From NCBI GenBank assembly GCA_044220955.1, contig JBGAQA010000005.1, forward strand, positions 9,897 through 73,896: a stretch of DNA of 64,000 nucleotides, in the 5' to 3' direction. Made by a program: the position numbers and the translations under genes. The notes under the pieces were generated by a model. It searched no databases, had not been told where the DNA came from, and worked only from the letters and a program-made list of their open reading frames with translations. This DNA is from Sandaracinaceae bacterium (lineage in GTDB: Bacteria; Myxococcota_A; Polyangia; Polyangiales; Sandaracinaceae). Positions 2,323-13,483 of this stretch are shown here, piece by piece; within the stretch, counting starts at the first letter, position 1, and each line of letters begins with the position of its first letter.

Positions 2323-2406
2323 GGGGTCACTCCACCAGGTCTCAACCCATCGAAATCACGGCGGTCTGGCGGCTAGGTGCGCGTTTTGTCGGCGTGGAGT
2401 GACCCC
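2323..2406. mobile_element. MITE/REPIN-like element, short copy
   Basis: 13-bp terminal inverted repeat GGGGTCACTCCAC...GTGGAGTGACCCC; interior aligns with the left arm of the 23834-23996 element. Confidence 0.6.
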
Positions 2407-2446
2407 CGTTCGACGCGCGGGGGGCGACGTGACACACCGGCGCCGC

Positions 2447-4003
2447 ATGAGGCCCACCGTCCTGCTCGGAAAGACGCCGCTCACCATCGAGGCTGTCTGC
2501 GCGATCGCCGAGGGACGAGCGACGATCGCCATCGACTCGGACGCCGAGCTGCGAGCACGCATCGCCGCCGGCTCGAAGTTCATCGAGGACAGCCTGAAGA
2601 ACGGGCGGACGATCTACGGCGTCACCACCGGGTTCGGTGCGTCGGTGGAGTTCCAGGTGTCTCCCGAGGTCGCCGAGGGAATGCCGCTGAACCTCGTGCG
2701 CTATCACGGGTGCGGAACGGGAGCGATCTTCGGCCCTCGCGAGGCCGCCGCGATCACCGCGGTGCGGGCGAGCTCCCTCTCGCGCGGGTACTCGGGCGTG
2801 CGCCAGGCGCTGCTCGACCGGCTCTGCCTCTTCGTCGATCGCGGCCTGCTCCCCTGCATCCCCGAGGAGGGCTCGGTGGGCGCGAGCGGTGATCTCACTC
2901 CTCTCTCCTACGTGGGCGCGCTCCTCGTGGGCGAGCGTGAAGCGTGGCTCGGAGGCAAGCAGCTCGACGCGATGGCGGGACACCGCTCGCTCGGGATCGA
3001 GCCGATGACGCTCCGCCCCAAGGAGTCGCTCGCGATCATGAACGGTACGAGCGTGATGAGCGCGCTCGGCTGCCTCTCGTGGATGCGCGCCCGGAAGCTC
3101 GCTCGCTTCACCGCGACGCTCACGGCGATGGCGTCCGACGTGCTGCACGGCGTGGCCGCGCACTTCGACGACCGCATCTACGAGCTCAAGCCGCACCCCG
3201 GTCAGCGCGTGCTCGCCCGCTGGATCCGCGAGCGCGTGCATCAGCAGAACCCGCCGGCTCGCGTTCAGGACCGCTACTCCGTGCGCTGCGCGCCGCACGT
3301 CGCCGGGCTCGTGCTCGACTGCCTCGGCTGGACGCGCCAGATGCTGGAGACGGAGCTGCACGGGATCAACGACAACCCGATCATCGAGGGGATCGGCCCC
3401 GAGGCGCCCGAGGGCCGCGTGATGCACGGCGGCAACTTCTACGGCGGGCACGCCTGCCTCGTCACCGACACGCTGAAGAACGTCGTCGCGAACGTGGGCG
3501 ACCTGCTCGACCGGCAGGTGGGGATGATGTGCAACCCCGCGACGAACGCGGGCCTGCCGGCGAACCTCGTGGCGCGCACCGGCGCCGATCGCCCGACGCA
3601 CCACGGCTTCAAGGCCATGGAGATCAGCGCGAGCGCGCTCGCCGCCGAGGCGCTCAAGATGAGCATGCCAGCGAGCGTCTTCTCGCGGAGCACCGAGAGC
3701 TACAACCAGGACAAGGTGTCGATGGGCACCATCAGCGCGCGCGAGTGCGTGCGCGTCCTCGACCTCGTCGAGACGATCGCCGTGATCCACCTGCTGACGG
3801 TGGTGCAGGCGGTCGATCTGCGCGGCCCCGGCCACTGCCACCCGAGGAGCGTCGAGATGCGCGACGCGGTCCGCGCCAGGATCCCGATGAACACCGCCGA
3901 CCGCCGCATGGACGTGGACATCAGCGCCGTGCTCGAGATGTACCGAGCAGGCGCGCTGCCCATCGGTGAGATCGACTTCGAGACCGGACCGACCTCCGCG
4001 TGA
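2447..4003 (+). CDS. Aromatic amino acid ammonia-lyase (HAL/PAL/TAL family, MIO enzyme), aryl-polyene-cluster type
   Basis: IYGVTTGFG, MIO motif GSVGASGDL, LRPKESLAIMNGT, QDRYSVRCAPHV, HGGNFYG, STESYNQDKVSMG. Confidence 0.92.
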   Translation: MRPTVLLGKTPLTIEAVCAIAEGRATIAIDSDAELRARIAAGSKFIEDSLKNGRTIYGVTTGFGASVEFQVSPEVAEGMPLNLVRYHGCGTGAIFGPREAAAITAVRASSLSRGYSGVRQALLDRLCLFVDRGLLPCIPEEGSVGASGDLTPLSYVGALLVGEREAWLGGKQLDAMAGHRSLGIEPMTLRPKESLAIMNGTSVMSALGCLSWMRARKLARFTATLTAMASDVLHGVAAHFDDRIYELKPHPGQRVLARWIRERVHQQNPPARVQDRYSVRCAPHVAGLVLDCLGWTRQMLETELHGINDNPIIEGIGPEAPEGRVMHGGNFYGGHACLVTDTLKNVVANVGDLLDRQVGMMCNPATNAGLPANLVARTGADRPTHHGFKAMEISASALAAEALKMSMPASVFSRSTESYNQDKVSMGTISARECVRVLDLVETIAVIHLLTVVQAVDLRGPGHCHPRSVEMRDAVRARIPMNTADRRMDVDISAVLEMYRAGALPIGEIDFETGPTSA

Positions 4004-4037
4004 CGCCGCGCGGAACGGGGCCGGGGGCCGGGGATCG

Positions 4038-4325
4038 TCAGCGGATGTGCTGAACCTCGGGCACGACGTTGCCGTCCACCTTGATCGCGCAGCTGCCGTC
4101 GGTGAACGGGCCGTCGCCGATGCCGAGGATCACGTGCACGTCGACCGCCTTGCCGTTCAGCTCGGCGCTGCCGTGGAGCTCGCCGATGCCGATGAAGGAC
4201 CAGGCGCGGCGCGCGATCTCGTGGCCGTCCCACTCGATGCTGAAGCCGCGCGTGATCTCGTTGCGGGCCACGGTGATGTTGTGCCCCTCGTACTTGGCTT
4301 CCCAGCGAGTCGCGATCAGTCCCAT
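4038..4325 (-). CDS. Small hypothetical beta-rich protein (95 aa)
   Basis: ATG 4325 preceded by a GGAGG RBS; coding-like composition MGLIATRWEAKYEGHNITVARNE... Confidence 0.7.
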   Translation of the reverse strand: MGLIATRWEAKYEGHNITVARNEITRGFSIEWDGHEIARRAWSFIGIGELHGSAELNGKAVDVHVILGIGDGPFTDGSCAIKVDGNVVPEVQHIR

Positions 4326-4385
4326 GTCCAACCCCTCCAGCCCCGCGGACGCTACCACGATGCGCGGGTGCTAAGGTGCCGCGTC

Positions 4386-4904
4386 ATGAGAGACGATGCG
4401 GAGCGGGTCGAGCCCATCACACGCGAGCTGCGCGAGCGCGCACCGGACGGGGCGACCACGGTCGATCTGCAGGTGCCCTTCCACGACTGCGACCCGCTCT
4501 TCGTCGCTTGGCACGGCTGGTACTACAAGTACTTCGAGATCGCCCGCTGCGCGCTCTTCGCCGCGCACCGCATCGACGTGCCCGACATGATCCCGCTCAA
4601 GCTCGGCCTCTACGTGATCGAGACCCGAGCGCGGCACGTCGGCACGCTGCGCTACGGCGACAAGTTCCGCGTCGCGGCCTGGTTCACCGAGTGGCTGGCG
4701 CGCATCTCGGTCGCCTACGAGATCCAGAACCTCACCACGGGCAAGCGCGCCGCGCGAGGCAAGACGGTGCTGGTGACGACGCGCCGCGCGCACCACGGGA
4801 CGCTGGCGTCTCCGGACGCTCCGCGTCCAGGCGAGGACGAGATGCTCTTCGAGACACCCGAGGTGCTGATCGAGCGCATCGTGGCACCCCCGATCGCGCG
4901 ATGA
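4386..4904 (+). CDS. Acyl-CoA/ACP thioesterase (4HBT/YbgC hot-dog family)
   Basis: VPFHDCDPLFVAWHGWYYKYFEIAR motif. Confidence 0.88.
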   Translation: MRDDAERVEPITRELRERAPDGATTVDLQVPFHDCDPLFVAWHGWYYKYFEIARCALFAAHRIDVPDMIPLKLGLYVIETRARHVGTLRYGDKFRVAAWFTEWLARISVAYEIQNLTTGKRAARGKTVLVTTRRAHHGTLASPDAPRPGEDEMLFETPEVLIERIVAPPIAR

Positions 4905-5566
4905 ACACCTCCGGCCCCAGCCCCGTCCAAGGGGGCGTGCCCCGCCTCGTCGCCGCCGCGCTCGCGCTGGTCCTCGTCGCCGCCGCCTTCACACCCTGCG
5001 GGTCTGCGTCCGCGCAGACCGCACCCACGCTCGACTCGGTGCTCCGGCGCTTCGCGTCGATCGAGGGGCTGACCCTCTCGTTCCACGAGGAGAAGCGCAT
5101 CGCGCTGCTCACGATGCCGCTCTCGACCGACGGCACGCTCGCGTACTCCCGCCCGGGTCGCCTCGCGAGGCGGGCCAGCGGCCAGGTCGTGCTCATCGAC
5201 GGCGCGTCACTGCGCATGGCCGACGGCGGGCACGAGCAGCACATCGATCTCGCCTCGCAGCCCGTCGTGCGCAGCTTCGTCGACTCGTTCCGAGCGCTGC
5301 TGGCTGGAGAACGCGCGGCCCTCGAGCAGAGCTACGTGATCTCGTTCGCGACGACGGCGCCCGACTGGACGATCACGCTCACGCCGCGCGGAGCGCCGCT
5401 GAGCGAGTTCCTCGCCAGCATCGTGTTCGTCGGCCACGGCGACGCGCTCGTCTCGATGACGATGAGCGAGACGAGCGGCGACGTCACGACCACGACGTTC
5501 TCGAACGTGGACGATCACCACCGCTTCAGCGCGGAGGAGTCGGCCCGCGTCTTCGACATCCGCTGA
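4901..5566 (+). CDS. LolA-like outer-membrane lipoprotein carrier-fold protein
   Basis: Signal peptide, FHEEKRIALLTMPLSTDGTLAYSRPGRL, WTITLTP; ATGA overlap with the thioesterase. Confidence 0.8.
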   Translation: MNTSGPSPVQGGVPRLVAAALALVLVAAAFTPCGSASAQTAPTLDSVLRRFASIEGLTLSFHEEKRIALLTMPLSTDGTLAYSRPGRLARRASGQVVLIDGASLRMADGGHEQHIDLASQPVVRSFVDSFRALLAGERAALEQSYVISFATTAPDWTITLTPRGAPLSEFLASIVFVGHGDALVSMTMSETSGDVTTTTFSNVDDHHRFSAEESARVFDIR

Positions 5567-5587
5567 TCGCGAGTCCCGCTCGCGCGT

Positions 5588-6028
5588 TCAGGCGCCCGAG
5601 TCGGGAGCCGGGACCGCTCCATACGCGGGAGCCGGACCGCCCGCGTCGTCCGCTGGCGCGCCGTACGCCGGCGCGGTGTTCCCCGCGTCGGATCCGGCGT
5701 CGATCGGGGGGCCGCCGTACATCGCGAGCATGCCCGAGTCGTTGCCAGGCGTGCCCATGTCGGCCGTGGGCATGCCGGTGTCGGCCGGCGCGCCGTACGC
5801 GGGCGCGATCCCCGAGTCGGTGCCCGGCGTGGTGGCGCCCCCGCATCCAGCGACGCTGGTCGCGATCGCGGCGCCGAACGCGAACGTCGCGGCGCGACCG
5901 AGGCGCTGCATCGGCTGCGCACGCTCCGGCACGCCCTCGAGGGCCAGGGCGCTGCCGCAGAACGGACAGCCGCTCTCGGAGCGGCGGACGTGACGCGAGC
6001 ACGAAGGACAAGGAAGCAGCTGGCTCAT
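5588..6028 (-). CDS. Putative splicease substrate 1 (Cys knuckle + lipobox + 4 XYG motifs)
   Basis: CPSCSRHVR...CPFC, RLGRAATFAFGAAIATSVAGC, motifs AYG/MYG/AYG/AYG. Confidence 0.85.
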   Translation of the reverse strand: MSQLLPCPSCSRHVRRSESGCPFCGSALALEGVPERAQPMQRLGRAATFAFGAAIATSVAGCGGATTPGTDSGIAPAYGAPADTGMPTADMGTPGNDSGMLAMYGGPPIDAGSDAGNTAPAYGAPADDAGGPAPAYGAVPAPDSGA

Positions 6029-6061
6029 CTCGAACTCCTGGGATGGGGTGGAACGCGCAGG

Positions 6062-6490
6062 TCAGGCACCGCTGTCGGGCGGCGGCGGCGCCCCGTAGTC
6101 GGAGCTCGAGCCGCCCATGTCGACGTCCCCCGCGTCCTGCGGAGGGCCGCCGTAGAGCGCCATCGCGCCGGCGTCGTCACCGGCATCCAGCGCCGGGCCG
6201 CCGTAGAGCGGACCTGGGCCGCCCGTGTCGACGCCCGTGTCGGCTGCTCCCGAGTCGCTCACCGCGGCGTCGATCGGCGGCCCGCCATAGGCCGCCGACG
6301 GACCGCCGCCGCACGCGGTCGTCGCCAACGCGGCCCCGAACGTGAACAGCGCGGCGCGACCGAGGCGCTCGACCGGCGATCGCGCGGCGACCGGTGGCGC
6401 GTCGAGCGAGACGCTCGCCCCGCAGAAGGGACAGACCGCCTCGGTCCGGCGGACGTGGCGGGCACAGGAAGGACAGGGGGCGAGGCTCAT
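6062..6490 (-). CDS. Putative splicease substrate 2 (4 XYG motifs)
   Basis: ATG 6490: MSLAPCPSCARHVR...CPFC, RLGRAALFTFGAALATTAC, motifs AYG/LYG/LYG/DYG. Confidence 0.85.
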   Translation of the reverse strand: MSLAPCPSCARHVRRTEAVCPFCGASVSLDAPPVAARSPVERLGRAALFTFGAALATTACGGGPSAAYGGPPIDAAVSDSGAADTGVDTGGPGPLYGGPALDAGDDAGAMALYGGPPQDAGDVDMGGSSSDYGAPPPPDSGA

Positions 6491-6495
6491 GGTGA

Positions 6496-6909
6496 CTACT
6501 CCGAGGGTGGGGGAGGCGGGGGCGGCGCGCCGTAGAGGGCCGCGGTGCCGGAGTCGGGGAAGTTCGCGTCGACGTCGAGGCCGGCGTCGACCGGCGGCCC
6601 TCCGTACGCCGCGACCAGACCTGCGTCGGTTCCCATGTCGACCGGCGGCCCGCCGTATGCGGCGTCGATCGATCCGTAGTTCGCGTCCGTGCCGGCGTCG
6701 CTCCCCGGCGCGCTCGCCGTGCCGCAGCCGGGCGCGCTCGCGGCGACCAGCGCGCCGAACGCGAACGTGGCCGCGCGGCCGAGGCGCTTGACCGGCATCA
6801 ACGCGGGCGCGGTCCCCGCGAGATCGAGCGACGACGCGCAGAACGGGCAGGTAGTCTCGTCCATGCGGACGTGACGGCTGCAAGAAGGACAAGGAGTCAG
6901 CGCGCTCAT
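6496..6909 (-). CDS. Putative splicease substrate 3 (4 XYG motifs)
   Basis: CPSCSRHVR...CPFC, RLGRAATFAFGALVAASAPGC, motifs NYG/AYG/AYG/LYG. Confidence 0.85.
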   Translation of the reverse strand: MSALTPCPSCSRHVRMDETTCPFCASSLDLAGTAPALMPVKRLGRAATFAFGALVAASAPGCGTASAPGSDAGTDANYGSIDAAYGGPPVDMGTDAGLVAAYGGPPVDAGLDVDANFPDSGTAALYGAPPPPPPPSE

Positions 6910-6984
6910 CTCGTGAAGCCCTCGCGGGACGAAGGAGAAGGAAGGGAATAGGATGCGACGGGCGGCGGTGTCGTCGCAAGAGCC

Positions 6985-7377
6985 TCAGCGGCCGGCGTCG
7001 AAGGGGGGCGCGCCGTACGCTCCCGCCAGCCCGCCGTCCTGACCGCCGTCGGGGAGCCCCGTGTCGTCGGGCGGCGCACCGTAGGGCGGGGAGACCCCGG
7101 CGTCCGGGTTGCCCGCCGCGTCGCGGCCGGAATCGACCGGGGTCGCGTTCGCGTCGACCGGCGCGCCCGAGTCGACCGCCGGCGTCGAGGACATGCTGCA
7201 CGCCGCGACGTTGGTCGCCATCGCCGCGCCGAACGCGAAGAGCGCAGCGCGCCCGAGTCGCTCGCTCACGACGGGAGACGAGAGCGGCTGGAGGGCGATC
7301 GACGCGGCGCAGAACGGACACACCACCTCCGTCGCGCGCACGTGTCTCGAGCAGGAGGGACAAGGCTGTAGCGACAT
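6985..7377 (-). CDS. Putative splicease substrate 4 (2 XYG motifs)
   Basis: ATG 7377: MSLQPCPSCSRHVR...CPFC, RLGRAALFAFGAAMATNVAAC, motifs PYG/AYG. Confidence 0.85.
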   Translation of the reverse strand: MSLQPCPSCSRHVRATEVVCPFCAASIALQPLSSPVVSERLGRAALFAFGAAMATNVAACSMSSTPAVDSGAPVDANATPVDSGRDAAGNPDAGVSPPYGAPPDDTGLPDGGQDGGLAGAYGAPPFDAGR

Positions 7378-7388
7378 CGTCTTCTCGC

Positions 7389-7898
7389 TCAGGGCCAAGG
7401 TGGCCCGCCATAGTCGGCGTTGCAGCATCCTAGATCGGCATCGGGCCCCGCGTCGTCCTCCGGGATCGGCGGCGCGCCGTAGAGGTTCAGGATCGCGCCC
7501 GCGTCGCGCTCGTCGGCCCCCGCCTCGAGCTCGTGCACCGATCCGCCGTCGGGCGTGACGGGAGCGCCGGCGTCCGGGTCGAGGAGGGACACGTCCATGG
7601 GCAGCAGCGACGCGTCGAGCGGGGGCGCCCCGTACGCCCCGATCGCCCACCCGGCGTCGTGCTCCGCCGTCGGTGGGGGGCCCGGCTCGAAGAGCTGCGT
7701 CTTGGACCCGCAGCCGGCCGTGCTCGTGACCGCCGCCGCACCGAGCGAGAAGAGCGCTGCGCGTCCGATGCGCGAGGACACGACGCGCGCGCTCGGCCCG
7801 GCGTCGGGGACGCGCAGGGTCCCGCAGAACGGACACGCCCGCTCCGTGCGGCGCACGTGCCTGTGGCACGACGAGCACGGTGCGAGCGTCGCGCTCAC
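7389..7898 (-). CDS. Putative splicease substrate 5 (3 XYG motifs)
   Basis: GTG 7898 overlaps the rSAM stop (GTGA): CSSCHRHVR...CPFC, RIGRAALFSLGAAAVTSTAGC, motifs AYG/LYG/DYG. Confidence 0.82.
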   Translation of the reverse strand: MSATLAPCSSCHRHVRRTERACPFCGTLRVPDAGPSARVVSSRIGRAALFSLGAAAVTSTAGCGSKTQLFEPGPPPTAEHDAGWAIGAYGAPPLDASLLPMDVSLLDPDAGAPVTPDGGSVHELEAGADERDAGAILNLYGAPPIPEDDAGPDADLGCCNADYGGPPWP

Positions 7899-9232
7899 TC
7901 GGCGGCTCCGGACATCGGGGCTGCGGGCGCCGCCGCTGCGGACATCGGCACCTCGACACTGTCCCTGGGCTCGACGACGATCTCGAAGCGCCCGTGGTCG
8001 AAGGGCTCGCCCGGCGCTTCCTCGGCCTTCACGACGCGCTCGCGCAGACCCTGCTTGTCGAACTCGAGCGCGCGGTGGTGACAGTACGGGTTGTTCCCCG
8101 CCTTGCCGAAGAGCACGAAGCTCGTCCACGTGCAGCCCGCGCGGCACTCGTCGGCGTAGTAACAGGTACGGCAGAAGCCGCTGAGATCCTCGACGGTGCG
8201 ATCACGCGTGTAGCGCAGCGGCGCCGAGCGCTCCCAGATGTCCTCGAGCGAATTGTCGCGGATGTTCCCGCCGGTCCACGCCTCGGTCGGCAGGGAGGGG
8301 CAGCCCTTGATGGCGCCGTCGGCCTCGATCCCGAGCGTCGAGCGCCCGGCGCCGCACGAGTACATGTGCCCGCGCGGCATGCGCCCGCGCAGCGTCGACT
8401 CGTAGGGCCCGAAGTAGCCGATGTTGTTGCCCGGCCACATCCGCACCTTGAGCTCGTCGCAGCGCTCCTTGAGCTTGCCGAGGCGCGGGAACAGATCGAG
8501 CAAGTCGTAGGGCTGGAGCAGCACCTCGGGCTCGTCGGCGGCGCGGCCCATCGCGACGGTGAGCTGGATCTGCCAGCTGTGCAGGCCCAGCGCGCCGATG
8601 GTCTCGAGCACGCCCTCGAGGTGCGGGATCGAGAGCCGGTTGATCTGCGTGTTGCACGACACCGGGATGCCGACCTCGCGCAGGTTGGCGATCGACTCGA
8701 GCGCCGACCTGTAGGACCCCTGCACGCCGCGCAGGCGGTCGTGCGTCGCCTCGTCCCCGTCGAGCGAGATGCTCGCCGTGCGCAGCCCCGCGTCCTTGGC
8801 CGCGCGCGCGCGCTCCTTGGTGATGCCGCGGCCGCCGCTCGTGAGCAGCGGGATCATCCCGTGGTGCGCGATGCGACGGATGATGTCGGTCCAGTCCTCG
8901 CGCAGGTACGCCTCGCCGCCGATGAGCGAGACCTCCTTCACCTGCATCGCGGCCATCTGATCGACGAGGTCGAGGCACTCCTCGGTCGAGAGCTCCTCGG
9001 GCCGCGCCTTGCCGGCGCGCGAGCCGCAGTGCCGGCACGCGAGGTCGCACGCGAGCGTGATCTCCCAGACCGCGTAGATGGGCCGCACGCGCTCGTCGAT
9101 CGGGCGCGCCTCGTCGGCGAGCGGAAGCTTGCGCTTGGCCGGCTTGGCGAGAGGGGCGAGCGGCAGGTGGCGAGGGCGCGGCGCCTTGGCGAGACGCTCG
9201 CGCTCCTCGGGGCTGATCGGGGAGTTGGCCAT
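7895..9232 (-). CDS. Radical SAM/SPASM peptide/protein maturase, PlpX-like splicease
   Basis: YAVWEITLACDLACRHCGSRAG (CxxxCxxC), LIGGEAYLR, QIQLTVAMGRAAD, PGNNIGYFGPYE; SPASM CGAG...IKGCPSL...CRTCYYADECRAGC...NNPYCHHRAL. Confidence 0.88.
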   Translation of the reverse strand: MANSPISPEERERLAKAPRPRHLPLAPLAKPAKRKLPLADEARPIDERVRPIYAVWEITLACDLACRHCGSRAGKARPEELSTEECLDLVDQMAAMQVKEVSLIGGEAYLREDWTDIIRRIAHHGMIPLLTSGGRGITKERARAAKDAGLRTASISLDGDEATHDRLRGVQGSYRSALESIANLREVGIPVSCNTQINRLSIPHLEGVLETIGALGLHSWQIQLTVAMGRAADEPEVLLQPYDLLDLFPRLGKLKERCDELKVRMWPGNNIGYFGPYESTLRGRMPRGHMYSCGAGRSTLGIEADGAIKGCPSLPTEAWTGGNIRDNSLEDIWERSAPLRYTRDRTVEDLSGFCRTCYYADECRAGCTWTSFVLFGKAGNNPYCHHRALEFDKQGLRERVVKAEEAPGEPFDHGRFEIVVEPRDSVEVPMSAAAAPAAPMSGAAE

Positions 9233-9391
9233 GACGAGAGGGTATCCCCCTCGCGCCGAGCGGAGGGAGCGGACAGAGCGCAGGAGCGAAGCGACGTAGC
9301 GGCGGGAGCGAGCGCAGCGAGGAAGCGGAACGAGGGGCGGGACCCGGTCGGCTCCGCCGAACGGGAGGGGCCGCGTATCGGCCCCGGAAGA

Positions 9392-10150
9392 CTAGAAACG
9401 CCAGCCGAGCGCGATTCGTCCCTCGGGCACGAAGCCGTAGCTCGTGATCGAGCTGGCGATGCGTCCCTCGATCTCCGCGACCGCGGGCGCCTCCTCGCGC
9501 ATCGCGGCCGGCACGTCGAGGTGCGCGCTCGATCCGAGCGTGAAGGTGCCACCGACGCCGATGCGCAGGACGAGGTGGTCCGCGATCACGAAGCGCCAGC
9601 CGAGCTCGGCGCTCATCGCGTGGACCATCACGTGCAGCTGCGTGGTGTCGAACCCGCTGTACGCGAAAGACTGCCCGGTGACCGTCTCGAGCATCCCGCG
9701 CGAGACGGTGGGCTGCGAGTACATGAGCGTGTAGCCAGCGAGGATCTCGAGCCCGGCGTCGGGGACCGGCCGCATGCCGGCCTGCAGACGAAACACCCCC
9801 GCGCTCCCGCCGATGGCCGAGACGAGCGAGCGGGCCCCGGCGGTGCCGCCGTACGCCTGAACGAGCTCGCCGAGCCCGTCCGCGTACGGGTTGCCGCCCG
9901 CCATCACGTCGAGGAGGAACCGGCCCGGCGTCTCGACTCGAACGTTCGCACCGAGCACGGTCGGCGCCGCGGTCGCGACCATCACGTCCACCGCCCACTC
10001 GGACGGGGACAGGACACGCACCGGCGGGGCGAGCTGGTCCGCCCGATCGCCCGGCGCGACGCGCTGCGCCATGGCCGCTCCAGGCGAAAACACGGCGATC
10101 GCGAGCGCCAGGCTCACCGTCCACCGTGCCGAAGCGCGCCAGGGGCTCAT
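9392..10150 (-). CDS. Putative outer-membrane beta-barrel protein
   Basis: Signal peptide, alternating amphipathic strands, C-terminal GRIALGWRF ending in Phe (BAM-type signal). Confidence 0.65.
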   Translation of the reverse strand: MSPWRASARWTVSLALAIAVFSPGAAMAQRVAPGDRADQLAPPVRVLSPSEWAVDVMVATAAPTVLGANVRVETPGRFLLDVMAGGNPYADGLGELVQAYGGTAGARSLVSAIGGSAGVFRLQAGMRPVPDAGLEILAGYTLMYSQPTVSRGMLETVTGQSFAYSGFDTTQLHVMVHAMSAELGWRFVIADHLVLRIGVGGTFTLGSSAHLDVPAAMREEAPAVAEIEGRIASSITSYGFVPEGRIALGWRF

Positions 10151-10267
10151 CGGACGGCGGAGGGAGCAGGCTGCGTGCCACCGGTCAGTGCGAGGGCCGT
10201 TCCGGAAGCGCTGCGTCACCGGGGGTCCGTTGCCCGCACGAGGGCGGGCGTTCGCCGGGCCGCTACG

Positions 10268-10567
10268 TCAGAGCCGGGGACCGCGACCGCGGAGCGCGCT
10301 CCAGACCGAGAGCACGACGAGCTCTTCGCCTCGGACACAGTCGTAGACGTGGAAGCGTGTCTGCGTGAGCAGCAGGCGCCTCGTGCCCCCCCCCCGCGAG
10401 CCGCGGTAGGGCGCTCCGACGTGCGGCGTCTGCTAGAGCAAAGCCAACGCAGCGTCGATCTCGTCCAGGACGAGCTCGGGCGCATCCGTCCGGTGGTCTC
10501 GCCACCAGGCATGCACGCGCTCGATTTCGCGCCGAGCACGCGGCGTGAGCTTCGCTCGAAGCGACAC
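10268..10567 (-). pseudogene. ParE/RelE-family toxin with one in-frame TAG
   Basis: Manual translation from GTG 10567: SLRAKLTPRARREIERVHAWWRDHRTDAPELVLDEIDAALALL*QTPHVGAPY...RRLLLTQTRFHVY...LVVLSVWSALRGRGPRL; stop at 10433-10435. Confidence 0.75.
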
Positions 10568-10572
10568 GACGT

Positions 10573-10836
10573 CTACTTCGTGCGCGAGCGCAGGGATGCG
10601 AGGACCTCTCGCGCGTCCGAGAGTTCACCGCGGTCCGCCTGCGCGTACGACTCCTCGATCGACGCCTCGAGCGCCGCTCGGTCCGCGTGGTCGAGGTCGT
10701 CGTCGACGATCGCGAGGCTCACCACCAGGCCATCCGGCAGATCAGTGGGCTCGTCGACGAGCAAGCGGCCACCCTTCACCCGCGCGCGAACGGGTGCGTC
10801 GTGCTCTTCGACGACGTCCCCGCGCTCGCGGGCCAT
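10573..10836 (-). CDS. Putative antitoxin, upstream partner of the ParE/RelE toxin; start uncertain
   Basis: VRARVKGGRLLVDEPTDLPDG...LEASIEESYAQADRGELSDAREVLASL; acidic; lies directly upstream of the toxin. Confidence 0.65.
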   Translation of the reverse strand: MARERGDVVEEHDAPVRARVKGGRLLVDEPTDLPDGLVVSLAIVDDDLDHADRAALEASIEESYAQADRGELSDAREVLASLRSRTK

Positions 10837-11138
10837 GGCTGCGACTGCCGGCTCCTCTCGCCCATGCACGATGGGGAGCGCGTCCCGCCCGGCGCCGTCG
10901 CAACCGAGGTCGCGCTCTGTTTCCTCTTCGAGGCCGACGTCCTGCCCCACCTCGCGCCGGGTACGGGCTTCCGCCTCTGGGAAGGACGGGTGATCGGGCA
11001 GGGGCGCGTGCTCCGGATCGGCGCGGAGCAGCCATCGCGGGCCTGCATTCCTGCATTCCTCGGCGGGAATTGCAGCGCTTTTCTCGCTTCCGGCCTCGAA
11101 ATACGCCGACCCTCCCGCGCGTAGTCCCGGGAGCCCCC

Positions 11139-11783
11139 ATGCGCGCGTTCGCTTGGCCGTCCCCGCTCCTGCCCCTACCCTCCCTCACCCTGCCCTCGCT
11201 CGAGAGCAGCAGCGGGAGAACGACGCGCCTGCCCAGCCTCGAAGAACGCGCGGCGAGCGGCGACCGGCGGGCCCTCGAGCCCCTGCTGCGCGAGCACGCG
11301 CGCGCGATCTCCGAGCTCTGCCGCTGCCTCGCGGGGCCGGAGGACGGGCGCGACGCCGCGCAGGAGTCGCTCGAGAAGATCGTCGTCTCGATCGCGCGCT
11401 TCGATCCAGCCAAGGGCTCGTTCCGCGCGTGGGCGCTCGCGGTCGCGCGCAACACCTGCCGCGATCGTCTGCGCCGGCGCGGACTCGAGCGCCGGCTCTT
11501 CGTGGCCGAGACCGACGAGCCGATGGACCTGCCCGGCGACCAGCCCGACGTCGAGCGCACCGCGCTCGCCCGCATCGAGTCGGTGCGCCTGGCCGCCGCG
11601 CTCGAGACCTTGCCTGCGCCGATGCGCGCGGCGATCGTCCTGTTCCACGTGCACGAGTCCAGCTACGAGGAGATCGCTGCCGCGCTCGAGGTGCCGATGG
11701 GCACCGTGATGACGTGGCTGCACCGCGGGCGCAAGCGCCTGCGCATCGCGCTCGACGGCGAAGCGCCCGAGGGGGCGTCATGA
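11139..11783 (+). CDS. ECF sigma factor
   Basis: DAAQESL...FDPAKGSFRAWALAVARNTCRD; region 4 SYEEIAAALEVPMGTVMTWLHRGRKRL. Confidence 0.9.
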   Translation: MRAFAWPSPLLPLPSLTLPSLESSSGRTTRLPSLEERAASGDRRALEPLLREHARAISELCRCLAGPEDGRDAAQESLEKIVVSIARFDPAKGSFRAWALAVARNTCRDRLRRRGLERRLFVAETDEPMDLPGDQPDVERTALARIESVRLAAALETLPAPMRAAIVLFHVHESSYEEIAAALEVPMGTVMTWLHRGRKRLRIALDGEAPEGAS

Positions 11784-13483
11784 CGCTCCGCCCGCACGTC
11801 CTCGAGGCGCTCGCGCACGACCGGCTCGATCTGCTCACCGAGCAGGAGGGCGCCGAGGTCGAGGCCCTGCGCGAGCGCGATCCCGCGGCGCTCGAGCGCG
11901 CGATCGCGAGCGCGCGCGAGACCTCGCACGCCTTCACGCGCGCGCTGCCTCGGGCGGTCTCGGACGACGTGGACGTCGACGCGCTGGTCCGCACGGCGCT
12001 CGCGCGGGCCGAGCACGCGAGCGAGCGCGCGTCGGCGCGGACGCTGGCCGTGGGGGCGACCCTCGGCGTGATGCTCGCGGCGATCAGCGGCTCGCTCGCG
12101 CTGGCGATGAGCGAGGGCGGGACGCTCGAGCCGCTGCGCCGCGCCGCCTCGCTCGTGCGCGCGGGGCTGACGCTCTCGCTCGTGACGACGCGCGCGCTCG
12201 ACGGGATCCCCGGAGGCGCGGCCACGATCGCCCTCGTGCTGCTCGCGACGGTGAGCGGGGTCGTGATGCTGGCGCGACGCTTCGACGGCCCGCTGCGCGC
12301 GGCGCTCCCGCTCGTGCTGATCGCCGCGTTCGTCCCCACCTACGCGCACGCCTACGACCTCGAGGGCGTGCTCCCCGCCGATCGCAGCGTGCACGTGGAC
12401 GCCGACCGCATGCCGCGCTCGCAGGTGCTCACGGAGGCCGCGCGCGGCGCCGGGCTGGGGCTCGTGTACACGCTGCCCGACGATCCGCCGGTGACGCTGC
12501 ACGTGCGGCACGTGCCGCTCTCGGAGGTGCTCGAGGCGGTGCTGCCCCCCGACGCCGCCGTGCACGCGACGCCGCGCCTCCTCACGGTGCACGCCTCGCG
12601 CAGCTCGGTGATGCAGCCGCTCGTGGCCGGACCCGAGGTGCCGGGGCGCAGCGTGGAGCTGCACGACGTGATCACGATGGGGGGCGACGCACACGTGGCC
12701 CCCGGCCAGGAGGTCCGCGACGTCGTCACGATGGGGGGCGACGCGACGATCGACGGGCGCACCTACGGCAGCGTCGTGACGATGGGCGGCGACGCGGACG
12801 TCTCGGGCGTTGTCGTCGGCGACGTGGTGACGATGGGCGGCGACATCCACGTGCGCGAGCAGGGGATGGTGCATGGCCGGCTCGACTCGCTCGGCGGCGA
12901 GGTGCGGGTCGATCCACCCGGCGTGTCGGTCGTCCCGACGTCGAGCCTGCCGCCCGCAGCGCTCACCGCGTCGCCCCTGCGCGAGGGCCACGGCGGCGGC
13001 AGCGACGACGAGGGCGGCATCGTGTGGGCGGTGCTGCGCTACTCGCTCCTGTTCCTGGCGGCGATCCTCTTCCTCGGTCTCGCCCCCGAGCGCTTCGGCC
13101 GCGTGCAGCGCGCGATCGTGGAGCGCCCCGTGCGCACGCTCGCGACCGGGATCCTCGGCGTGATCGTGACGGGCGTGGTGATGATCGCGCTCTGCGTGAG
13201 CCTCATCGGCATCCCGGTCGCCCTGGTGCTCGCGATCCCGATGCCCGTGGCCGCGACGGCGGCGCTGGCCGCGATGCTGCCCGTGATCGGCGCGATGATC
13301 CCGACCCGCAAGCTCGACGGGCGCCCGGTCGCGCGCCTGGCGGCGGGAGCGCTCGTGCTCTTCGTGCTCACGCGCATCCCGCTCGTCGGCGGGCTCGCGC
13401 TCGCGCTCGCGCTGCTCGCGGGGCTCGGCGCGCTGGTGCTGACGCGCTTCGGGGCGCGCGACGCCGGGCCTCAGGGCCTCTGA
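11780..13483 (+). CDS. Anti-sigma-like membrane protein with STN-like domain, bactofilin-like beta-helix repeats and C-terminal TM bundle
   Basis: ATGA overlap with the sigma gene; 4x (D/S)V(I/V)TMGGD repeats; several TM helices. Confidence 0.7.
   Translation: MTLRPHVLEALAHDRLDLLTEQEGAEVEALRERDPAALERAIASARETSHAFTRALPRAVSDDVDVDALVRTALARAEHASERASARTLAVGATLGVMLAAISGSLALAMSEGGTLEPLRRAASLVRAGLTLSLVTTRALDGIPGGAATIALVLLATVSGVVMLARRFDGPLRAALPLVLIAAFVPTYAHAYDLEGVLPADRSVHVDADRMPRSQVLTEAARGAGLGLVYTLPDDPPVTLHVRHVPLSEVLEAVLPPDAAVHATPRLLTVHASRSSVMQPLVAGPEVPGRSVELHDVITMGGDAHVAPGQEVRDVVTMGGDATIDGRTYGSVVTMGGDADVSGVVVGDVVTMGGDIHVREQGMVHGRLDSLGGEVRVDPPGVSVVPTSSLPPAALTASPLREGHGGGSDDEGGIVWAVLRYSLLFLAAILFLGLAPERFGRVQRAIVERPVRTLATGILGVIVTGVVMIALCVSLIGIPVALVLAIPMPVAATAALAAMLPVIGAMIPTRKLDGRPVARLAAGALVLFVLTRIPLVGGLALALALLAGLGALVLTRFGARDAGPQGL

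Follow-up and report, generated by a model that had tools for sequence, protein, structure and literature searches.

To our knowledge, tyramine splicing is the only route by which alpha-keto-beta-amino acids are known to arise in ribosomal proteins. The spliceotide systems designated type I are PlpX/PlpY/PlpA and PcpXYA of Pleurocapsa (PMC11414181; PMC10533398; PMC11002830), which, in the cited section of one of these reports, need a separate small PqqD-like Y protein and Nif11/NHLP-type leaders (PMC11414181). The binary, or type II, systems are RhaX/RhaA, RasX/RasA and RcsX/RcsA of Rheinheimera, for which a leader helix is proposed as the element that binds and activates the enzyme, and in which structure models put the X-Y-G motif in the active site (PMC11626197; PMC11414181). 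As the cited passages describe them, the type II systems have helical leader peptides and give short, soluble products with a single spliced site. The Scott 2022 survey is reported to have predicted 939 systems in 189 genera from the YG-rich neighbours of PlpX-like enzymes (PMC10849128; PMC10533398), and, according to the cited part of a further article, isolation of a native spliceotide product from its producer has yet to be achieved (PMC9811515). Here we compare these systems with a locus at positions 5588 to 9232 of a 64,000-nucleotide stretch of DNA, referred to below as the window, from a Sandaracinaceae bacterium (GenBank assembly GCA_044220955.1, contig JBGAQA010000005.1, positions 9,897 to 73,896), a myxobacterium from activated sludge. 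On balance, we favour the view that the locus encodes a two-component ('binary') tyramine-splicease system, in which a cytoplasmic radical S-adenosylmethionine (SAM)/SPASM enzyme would act on five proteins encoded downstream of it to give exported, probably lipid-anchored multi-ketoamide proteins. This view draws on the gene anatomy, the conservation of the protein families, their co-occurrence, the clade placement of the enzyme and a supportive model of the enzyme-substrate complex.

The window has a GC content of ~73%, and the best matches of its proteins are to Sandaracinaceae and other Myxococcota. The six genes of the locus are co-oriented on the minus strand. The gene for the splicease-like radical SAM/SPASM enzyme (7895..9232; 445 aa) is followed by P1 (7389..7898; 169 aa, GTG start), P2 (6985..7377; 130 aa), P3 (6496..6909; 137 aa), P4 (6062..6490; 142 aa) and P5 (5588..6028; 146 aa), the last being the final gene of the array. 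An earlier reading of this DNA, made from its letters alone (the sequence-only reading), had described a GTGA coupling between the enzyme and the first small gene, and we find the same arrangement: the TGA of the enzyme gene (7897-7895) overlaps the GTG start of P1 (7898-7896). This start is supported by the position of the first CxxC motif in the family alignment, at residue 8 in P1 and at residues 6-7 in the four other paralogues. The remaining intergenic gaps in the array are 5-75 bases long, and P2-P5 are 41-53% identical to P1. The tandem array is no artefact of assembly, as a 4057-base contig from a separate study covers 5400-8570 with only five differing letters. In the source genome (7.5 Mb in 301 contigs, 88% complete), we found a single copy of the enzyme gene, and P1-P5 were the only substrates.

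P1-P5 share one architecture, comprising an N-terminal zinc ribbon, a linker, a hydrophobic helix ending in Cys and a tail. The ribbon sequence is C-P-x-C-x-R-H-V-R-x5-C-P-F-C (CxxC-x10-CPFC), with C8, C11, C22 and C25 as its cysteines in P1. The linker of ~15 residues ends in R-L-G-R-A-A and carries a conserved Arg, and the helix is closed by Cys63 in P1, Cys60 in P2 and P4, and Cys62 in P3 and P5. The tail is acidic, disordered and rich in Pro, Gly and Ala, and it carries every Y-G site of the protein (two to four copies of x-Y-G-(G/A)-P-P). The AlphaFold2 model of P4 agrees with this description: residues 1-30 form the ribbon, with two beta-hairpin strands, at a predicted local distance difference test score (pLDDT) of 94-96, residues 45-58 form the helix, and the chain past residue 60 has no secondary structure and a pLDDT of 50-60. 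No Pfam or NCBIfam model matched P1-P5 above its threshold, including any for a Nif11/NHLP-type leader, and generic zinc-ribbon models appeared only below threshold. The nearest ESM Atlas clusters of P3 are unannotated Myxococcota proteins. The zinc ribbon and the lipobox-like signal, neither of which figured in the sequence-only reading, set this class of substrates apart.

All 17 tyrosines of P1-P5 immediately precede Gly. P1 has three sites (A-Y-G, L-Y-G and D-Y-G), P2 two (P-Y-G and A-Y-G), P3 four (N-Y-G, A-Y-G, A-Y-G and L-Y-G), P4 four (A-Y-G, L-Y-G, L-Y-G and D-Y-G, the first being Y68-G69) and P5 four (A-Y-G, M-Y-G, A-Y-G and A-Y-G). The series 3+2+4+4+4 in gene order is identical to the 4+4+4+2+3 that the sequence-only reading had counted in coordinate order, and the varied residue X before Tyr, on which that reading had also remarked, is Ala at eight sites, Leu at four, Asp at two, and Pro, Asn and Met at one each. 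The motif extends to Y-G-(G/A) at 16 of the 17 sites and to Y-G-(G/A)-P at 15. Given the 13.8% Gly content of P1-P5, the chance of finding all 17 tyrosines before Gly is about 2e-15. The 'up to 17 ketoamides' expected from such an array should be taken as an upper bound, because in RcsA the MYG motif is reported as spliced and the DYG motif as left unspliced (PMC11626197), and the present array has DYG at two of its 17 sites. Use of the NYG and PYG sites is likewise uncertain.

To place the locus among its relatives, we scanned species-representative genomes, which gave 567 stretches with relatives of the enzyme; the results below refer to the best 80, all from Myxococcota metagenome-assembled genomes and with enzymes 59-92% identical to that of the window. 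At 57 of the 80 loci, one or more complete ribbon-helix-Cys proteins (86 in total) are encoded on the enzyme strand, nearly always directly downstream. Two loci (L047 and L068) also have ribbon proteins beside the enzyme, outside our filter, and at eight others the ribbon protein is interrupted by a contig end. A ribbon protein thus adjoins the enzyme on the same strand at 67 of the 80 loci (57+2+8). The 86 complete proteins and the five of the window were aligned (91 rows, alignment A2) after two differently built ribbon proteins, at 10675 in L011 and at 1892 in L057, had been dropped; C6, C9, H12, C20, C23, R45 and C60 are invariant. A 355-aa protein encoded upstream of the enzyme in L057 (1893-2957), excluded from the family counts, combines this ribbon with a lipobox-like Cys followed by a Cys-rich, Tyr-containing domain, and only one of its 10 tyrosines lies in a Y-G pair.

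The Y-G signature is confined to the tails of the aligned proteins. After C60, 284 of 300 tyrosines precede Gly, and before C60 none of 13 does. At least one Y-G site is present in 90 of the 91 proteins (range 0-6 sites each, mode 3), with a median spacing of 23 residues between sites and a median distance of 10 residues from the final site to the C-terminus. A count of 268 sites from 88 proteins, in which the two unrelated proteins were still included, gave Leu as the residue preceding Y-G at 92 sites, Ala at 53, Val at 40, Pro at 25, Ile at 14, Met at 11 and others at 33. Ala or Gly occupied the +2 position at 202 of these sites and Pro the +3 position at 207, giving a consensus of (L/A/V/P)-Y-G-(A/G)-P-P. 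One PlpA splice tag derived from a natural core is described as also having Pro at +3 from Tyr (PMC10533398).

Co-occurrence was also evident at the level of genomes. Among 301 genomes of the phylum, the enzyme was found in 77 (E <= 1e-100) and the ribbon head in 41 (E <= 1e-6), and 40 of the 41 ribbon-head genomes have the enzyme, albeit these genomes are related and are not independent samples. The expectation of the sequence-only reading, namely that homologous substrates would conserve YG and co-occur with the radical SAM enzyme, is therefore borne out by the tail tyrosines, the loci and the genomes alike, and the pairing of enzyme and ribbon protein appears to occur across the phylum. In the lone ribbon-head genome without an enzyme match at E <= 1e-100 (G050; C128, C69), the ribbon matches span profile positions 2-40 only. 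All-against-all BLAST of 5061 open reading frames (ORFs) from the 80 loci, in which the SEG filter hid the low-complexity substrates, detected no ORF family in more than 10 loci other than the enzyme and its shadow frames. The cassette is thus binary, with no conserved Y protein, protease or transporter.

The enzyme matches the Pfam models Radical_SAM (77.7 bits) and SPASM (34.3 bits). Its CX3CX2C motif consists of C62, C66 and C69, and its SPASM cysteines are C293, C311, C354, C357, C363, C367 and C384; all of these are invariant or nearly so in a 56-row alignment of relatives (A3). The AlphaFold2 model of the enzyme has a pLDDT of 89 and a predicted template modelling score of 0.88. In NCBIfam, the best match is TIGR04103 ('nif11-class peptide radical SAM maturase 3'), which we take to be the PlpX family, at 516.4 bits (cut-off 725), and the second is TIGR03913 ('GDL motif peptide-associated radical SAM/SPASM maturase') at 475.1 bits (cut-off 591.75). 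Other radical SAM families reach at most 162.5 bits (TIGR04133 162.5, AhbD 151, MftC 129, PqqE 105 and SkfB 83). As the enzyme falls under the curated cut-offs of both named families, we assign it to the wider clade around them and not to the PlpX equivalog. The five enzyme motifs listed in the sequence-only reading are all present in the window protein. The motifs WEITL, WQIQLTV, GNNIGYxGP, KGCPSLP and NNPYCHHR are common to the enzyme and the cyanobacterial proteins P0334 and P0363, which bear the NCBI name 'nif11-class peptide radical SAM maturase 3' and score 820 and 808 bits against TIGR04103, above its cut-off. A sequence comparison did not find the five motifs in PqqE or SkfB.

A profile-free search of 1.84 billion representatives returned 701 matches at E <= 1e-30. 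When 70 full-length representatives (E <= 1e-90) were scanned, 24 matched a family, always and only TIGR04103 or TIGR03913, and the same two families were matched when 16 of the other 46 were rescanned (E <= 1e-60). P0126 is the sole scanned representative above the TIGR03913 cut-off (771 bits). P0010, a close homologue of the enzyme, bears the TIGR03913 name in NCBI; another relative, P0024 of the cultivable Sandaracinus amylolyticus, is 76% identical to the window enzyme. No TIGR03913 member above the cut-off was found among the 301 phylum genomes searched. We then built a maximum-likelihood (ML) tree of 48 rows (LG+G4), with a distant radical SAM protein of the same genome as outgroup and without the PlpX and Rheinheimera enzymes; relative to a 57-row quick tree, P0141, P0212, P0226, P0249, P0253, P0260, P0267, P0343 and P0401 were left out. 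The myxobacterial clade of the window is supported at 100/99 and is sister, at 85/93, to a group of P0127 and the TIGR04103-like clade (100/100), a placement with which the quick tree agrees. The TIGR04103-like clade includes two proteins above the TIGR04103 cut-off, and the TIGR03913-like enzymes form a separate clade (94/93) within the same wider clade (100/98). The family scores and the sister placement together put the enzyme in the PlpX-like clade, as the sequence-only reading had suspected, apart from PqqE, MftC, AhbD and SkfB. A Foldseek search with the enzyme model returned only generic SPASM folds, the nearest being PqqE, SkfB, SuiB, CteB and anSME, and a sequence search of the PDB returned SkfB and PqqE only.

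We modelled the enzyme (alignment A3) with residues 1-80 of P4 (alignment A2), SAM and three 4Fe-4S clusters. The interaction prediction score from aligned errors (ipSAE) of this complex is 0.81, and the best of three controls reached 0.01. Of 157 solved complexes, 116 reach the mark applied to this score, as do two of 215 mismatched pairs; these counts hold only roughly here because our own alignments were supplied and ligands were present. Agreement between the runs covers 61% or more of the contacts, and the partner has a pLDDT of at least 62. In the model, P4 residues 63-74 sit in the active site, and the contacts of lowest error all join residues 68-71 (Y-G-G-P, the first site) to the interior of the enzyme barrel. 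The enzyme residues in contact (55, 102, 104, 131, 154, 192, 194, 219, 221, 266 and 312) lie in or next to motifs conserved in A3. Other confident contacts involve ribbon residues 2-3, 5, 9-12 and 21, as well as R45. The model supports, but does not establish, binding of P4 by the enzyme with the first Y-G pair in the active site.

A second line of evidence comes from ribbons fused to enzymes. Among representatives of at least 340 aa, a CxxC-x10-CxxC ribbon is present at the C-terminus, past the SPASM domain, in 11 relatives of the enzyme (P0125, P0126, P0130, P0131, P0137, P0140, P0144, P0150, P0152, P0153 and P0163) and at the N-terminus in P0127. In a set of 403 proteins, a hidden Markov model (HMM) of the substrate ribbon recovers the fused ribbons of 10 of these 12 enzymes (all but P0152 and P0163), together with P0165, P0148 and P0279, with domain E-values from 3e-8 (P0165) to 0.02 (P0130); another three matches, distinct from all of these, resemble read-through gene calls and were disregarded. 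In the ML tree, the C-terminal fusions correspond to the TIGR03913-like clade. Since one clade carries the ribbon on its substrates and another on its enzymes, we argue that the ribbon contacts the enzyme. Bench work offers a parallel: spliceases with the Y protein or the leader of RhaA fused to their C-terminus are described as active and leader-independent (PMC11414181).

Compared with the type I systems, as far as the cited reports describe them, the locus shares a radical SAM/SPASM enzyme of the same wider clade, the signature motifs, the X-Y-G sites (more than one per precursor in some type I systems) and the expected tyramine excision. In contrast to type I, it has no conserved Y protein or recognition element for peptides that are made on the ribosome and modified after translation (RiPPs) nearby, the position of the leader is taken by a zinc ribbon with a lipoprotein-like signal, five precursors carry two to four sites each, and the enzyme reaches 516 bits against the TIGR04103 cut-off of 725. 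With the type II systems it has in common the restriction to two components, the leader on the substrate and the modelled placement of X-Y-G in the active site; it differs from them in that a zinc ribbon takes the place of the putative leader and a tail of 70-105 residues follows a putative export signal, the enzymes of the two being compared here by features other than a tree. The TIGR03913-like enzymes belong to the same wider clade, but the window enzyme lacks the C-terminal ribbon seen in P0126 and in ten TIGR03913-like relatives, and the window system carries the ribbon on its substrates instead. The engineered fusions PlpX-PlpY and RhaX-RhaA-leader resemble these natural proteins in that an activating or recognition element is found either on the substrate or at the enzyme C-terminus; the engineered versions, in the cited account, are laboratory constructs with helical elements (PMC11414181), whereas the relatives of the window enzyme are natural and carry a zinc ribbon with a presumed activating role.

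Judged from these sequence comparisons, the window system probably functions like the binary (type II) spliceotide systems, within the wider PlpX-like clade. It stands apart from the spliceotide systems described above in that its precursors are neither of the Nif11/NHLP type nor short peptides and its enzyme fails both curated cut-offs. A literature search turned up no account of splicease substrates of the zinc-ribbon or lipoprotein type, albeit the Scott 2022 survey lay outside that search and may list the class. The array of five genes and 17 sites is a rich example of such a system, to which the ribbon fusions and the active-site model add support.

The chemistry, the export with lipidation and the function of the system we infer as follows. 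Each substrate would be a pre-prolipoprotein-like protein with an unusual zinc-ribbon head, which may dock on the enzyme as a leader and perhaps as an activator. The Y-G sites would then thread singly and in succession into the radical SAM barrel, where the enzyme would excise a tyramine equivalent (C8H9NO, -135.07 Da) per Y-G and leave an alpha-keto-beta-amino amide bearing the side chain of X, in the window products mostly that of Ala or Leu. The modified protein would leave the cytoplasm via Sec, its Cys would be lipidated, and signal peptidase II would cut off the ribbon along with the signal peptide, so that a dedicated leader protease or transporter would be unnecessary. This would yield a peptide of ~70-105 residues, anchored in the envelope and bearing several electrophilic ketoamides. 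Ketoamides make strong warheads for protease inhibitors, and the product could plausibly be a tethered inhibitor of Ser or Cys proteases. By analogy, a protease-shielding role would be plausible, because spliceotide ketoamides are reported to inhibit both Ser and Cys proteases (PMC11626197).

Several observations weigh against the reading proposed here, and they concern export, chemistry and pairing. Regarding export, the strict lipobox [LVI][ASTVI][GAS]C occurs in only 26 of the 91 aligned proteins (a relaxed form in 77), and it is unusual for the n-region of a signal peptide to contain a folded domain of 30 residues; at ~45 residues, this n-region is unlike those of classical lipoprotein signals. 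Alternatively, the helix could serve as a membrane anchor without being cleaved. The proteins would then be spliced but would not be lipoproteins; the N-terminus would stay inside, the cytoplasmic ribbon would be kept, and the modified tail would lie outside the inner membrane. The conserved Arg before the helix agrees with the positive-inside rule under either alternative. However, the helix ends in Cys in all 91 proteins, this Cys is preceded by Ala (56 proteins) or Gly (31) in 87 of them and followed by Gly or Ser in 84, and a plain anchor would not need these residues. An invariant Cys ending a signal-like helix is a requirement of lipidation and not of plain anchoring, and we regard the uncleaved anchor as somewhat unlikely. 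Given that so long a folded n-region is atypical, we put the passage of the substrates through a lipoprotein step, as predicted from the sequence, at about an even chance.

Regarding chemistry, tyramine excision by the window enzyme is proposed from homology and the Y-G motif, as no member of the clade has been characterised in the literature consulted. The enzyme lies under the cut-offs of both TIGR04103 (516 vs 725) and TIGR03913 (475 vs 592), the sister placement with the TIGR04103-like clade is only moderately supported (85/93), and the PDB contains no solved splicease structure. The link between PlpX and TIGR04103 rests on the presumed correspondence of IPR026482 to TIGR04103 and on one published assignment, PlpX itself not being in the tree. 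That assignment, in the cited part of the report, is of PlpX to IPR026482 (PMC11002830). It could therefore be that the pairing is right and the chemistry is different, such that the Tyr of Y-G is modified without tyramine loss, for instance by a C-C or C-O cross-link, a change at the beta-carbon or epimerisation. Radical SAM/SPASM enzymes are diverse, and those with the nearest solved folds (PqqE, SkfB, SuiB, CteB and anSME) cross-link or oxidise their substrates. On the other hand, the nearly absolute Gly after Tyr in the tails (284 of 300) is a splice-site signature, the clade-specific motifs that line the modelled active site are common to true TIGR04103 members, and 27 splicease-substrate pairs are reported as confirmed among YG-associated PlpX-like enzymes from 189 genera (PMC10849128). 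We consider a different chemistry improbable.

Regarding pairing, 13 of the 80 loci have no ribbon protein beside the enzyme; four of these have less than 250 bases downstream, and six (L014, L044, L049, L051, L077 and L080) have none despite more than 1 kb downstream. Likewise, 37 of the 77 enzyme genomes have no ribbon-head match at E <= 1e-6, which is partly explained by a diverged ribbon class that the profile missed, found in L093 (1196-2470), L096 (2055-2414) and L097 (3707-4174). These ribbon proteins are encoded upstream of enzymes ~50% identical to that of the window, and their signal helix ends in L-M-A-C-Y-G, such that the lipobox-like Cys is the X of a single C-Y-G site. The score of the complex model may derive in part from resemblance to solved complexes of radical SAM enzymes with peptides, e.g. 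SuiB-SuiA. That the small proteins are zinc-ribbon membrane regulators or partners neighbouring a radical SAM enzyme that acts elsewhere would fit their lack of a curated family, with only sub-threshold generic zinc-ribbon Pfam models, and the ribbon genes far from the enzyme in some genomes, but we judge it very improbable in view of the restriction of the Y-G enrichment to the tail, the adjacency at 67 of 80 loci, the enzyme in 40 of 41 ribbon genomes, the complex model that sets Y-G in the active site (0.81 vs 0.01 for the best control) and the lack of any alternative precursor conserved nearby. In G285, G300 and G120, 8-12 ribbon-head genes were detected; several lie remote from any splicease-like enzyme, by contig or by position, and may represent dispersed 'orphan' substrates.

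Beyond the window, we tentatively propose that the splicease reading extends to a phylum-wide and as yet unnamed class of 'lipo-spliceoproteins' in Myxococcota. In such a class, a zinc-ribbon RiPP leader would reside in the n-region of a lipoprotein signal, Sec, Lgt and signal peptidase II would serve as exporter and leader peptidase, and the product would be a lipid-anchored, disordered multi-ketoamide protein displayed on the envelope. The ribbon would be a portable docking or activating module, carried by the substrate or by the TIGR03913-like enzyme. In predatory, protease-secreting myxobacteria, the product could be a tethered shield against proteases. A widespread myxobacterial class of exported, probably lipid-anchored multi-site substrates would suggest a physiological role and a cellular location, and it would give a natural case of general secretion enzymes removing a RiPP leader. 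The natural fusions of enzyme and ribbon would mirror the laboratory leader fusions that made splicing leader-independent. For protein engineering, a compact two-gene system for multi-site splicing and a small zinc-ribbon handle could both be of use.

The surroundings of the array were also surveyed. A scan of 5300-10400 for promoters and terminators gave nothing informative. Large overlapping ORFs on the plus strand (e.g. 7880-10993) were rejected as shadow frames typical of DNA with 73% GC, and a sequencing run guessed to be of RNA contributed one 233-base contig only and is probably of DNA. Directly upstream of the enzyme on the minus strand, 9392-10219 encodes a 275-aa protein with a signal-like N-terminus and no family match; it probably lies outside the system, because a homologue is found upstream at only seven of the 80 related loci. 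Diverging from this upstream gene, the plus-strand genes at 10545-13483 encode an ECF (extracytoplasmic function)-type sigma factor domain and then a 776-aa membrane protein with repeated V-V-T-M-G-G-D, for which NCBIfam gave no match. On the other side, three plus-strand genes (2399-5566) converge on the array and encode an aromatic ammonia-lyase, a weakly thioesterase-like ORF and a LolA-like protein. The ammonia-lyase scores 401.8 bits against the BagA/FevW tyrosine ammonia-lyase model and 392 bits against that for histidine ammonia-lyase, both under the cut-off, and the LolA-like protein scores 42 bits against the flexirubin LolA2 model; taken together, the three genes recall a pigment cluster of the aryl-polyene or flexirubin type.

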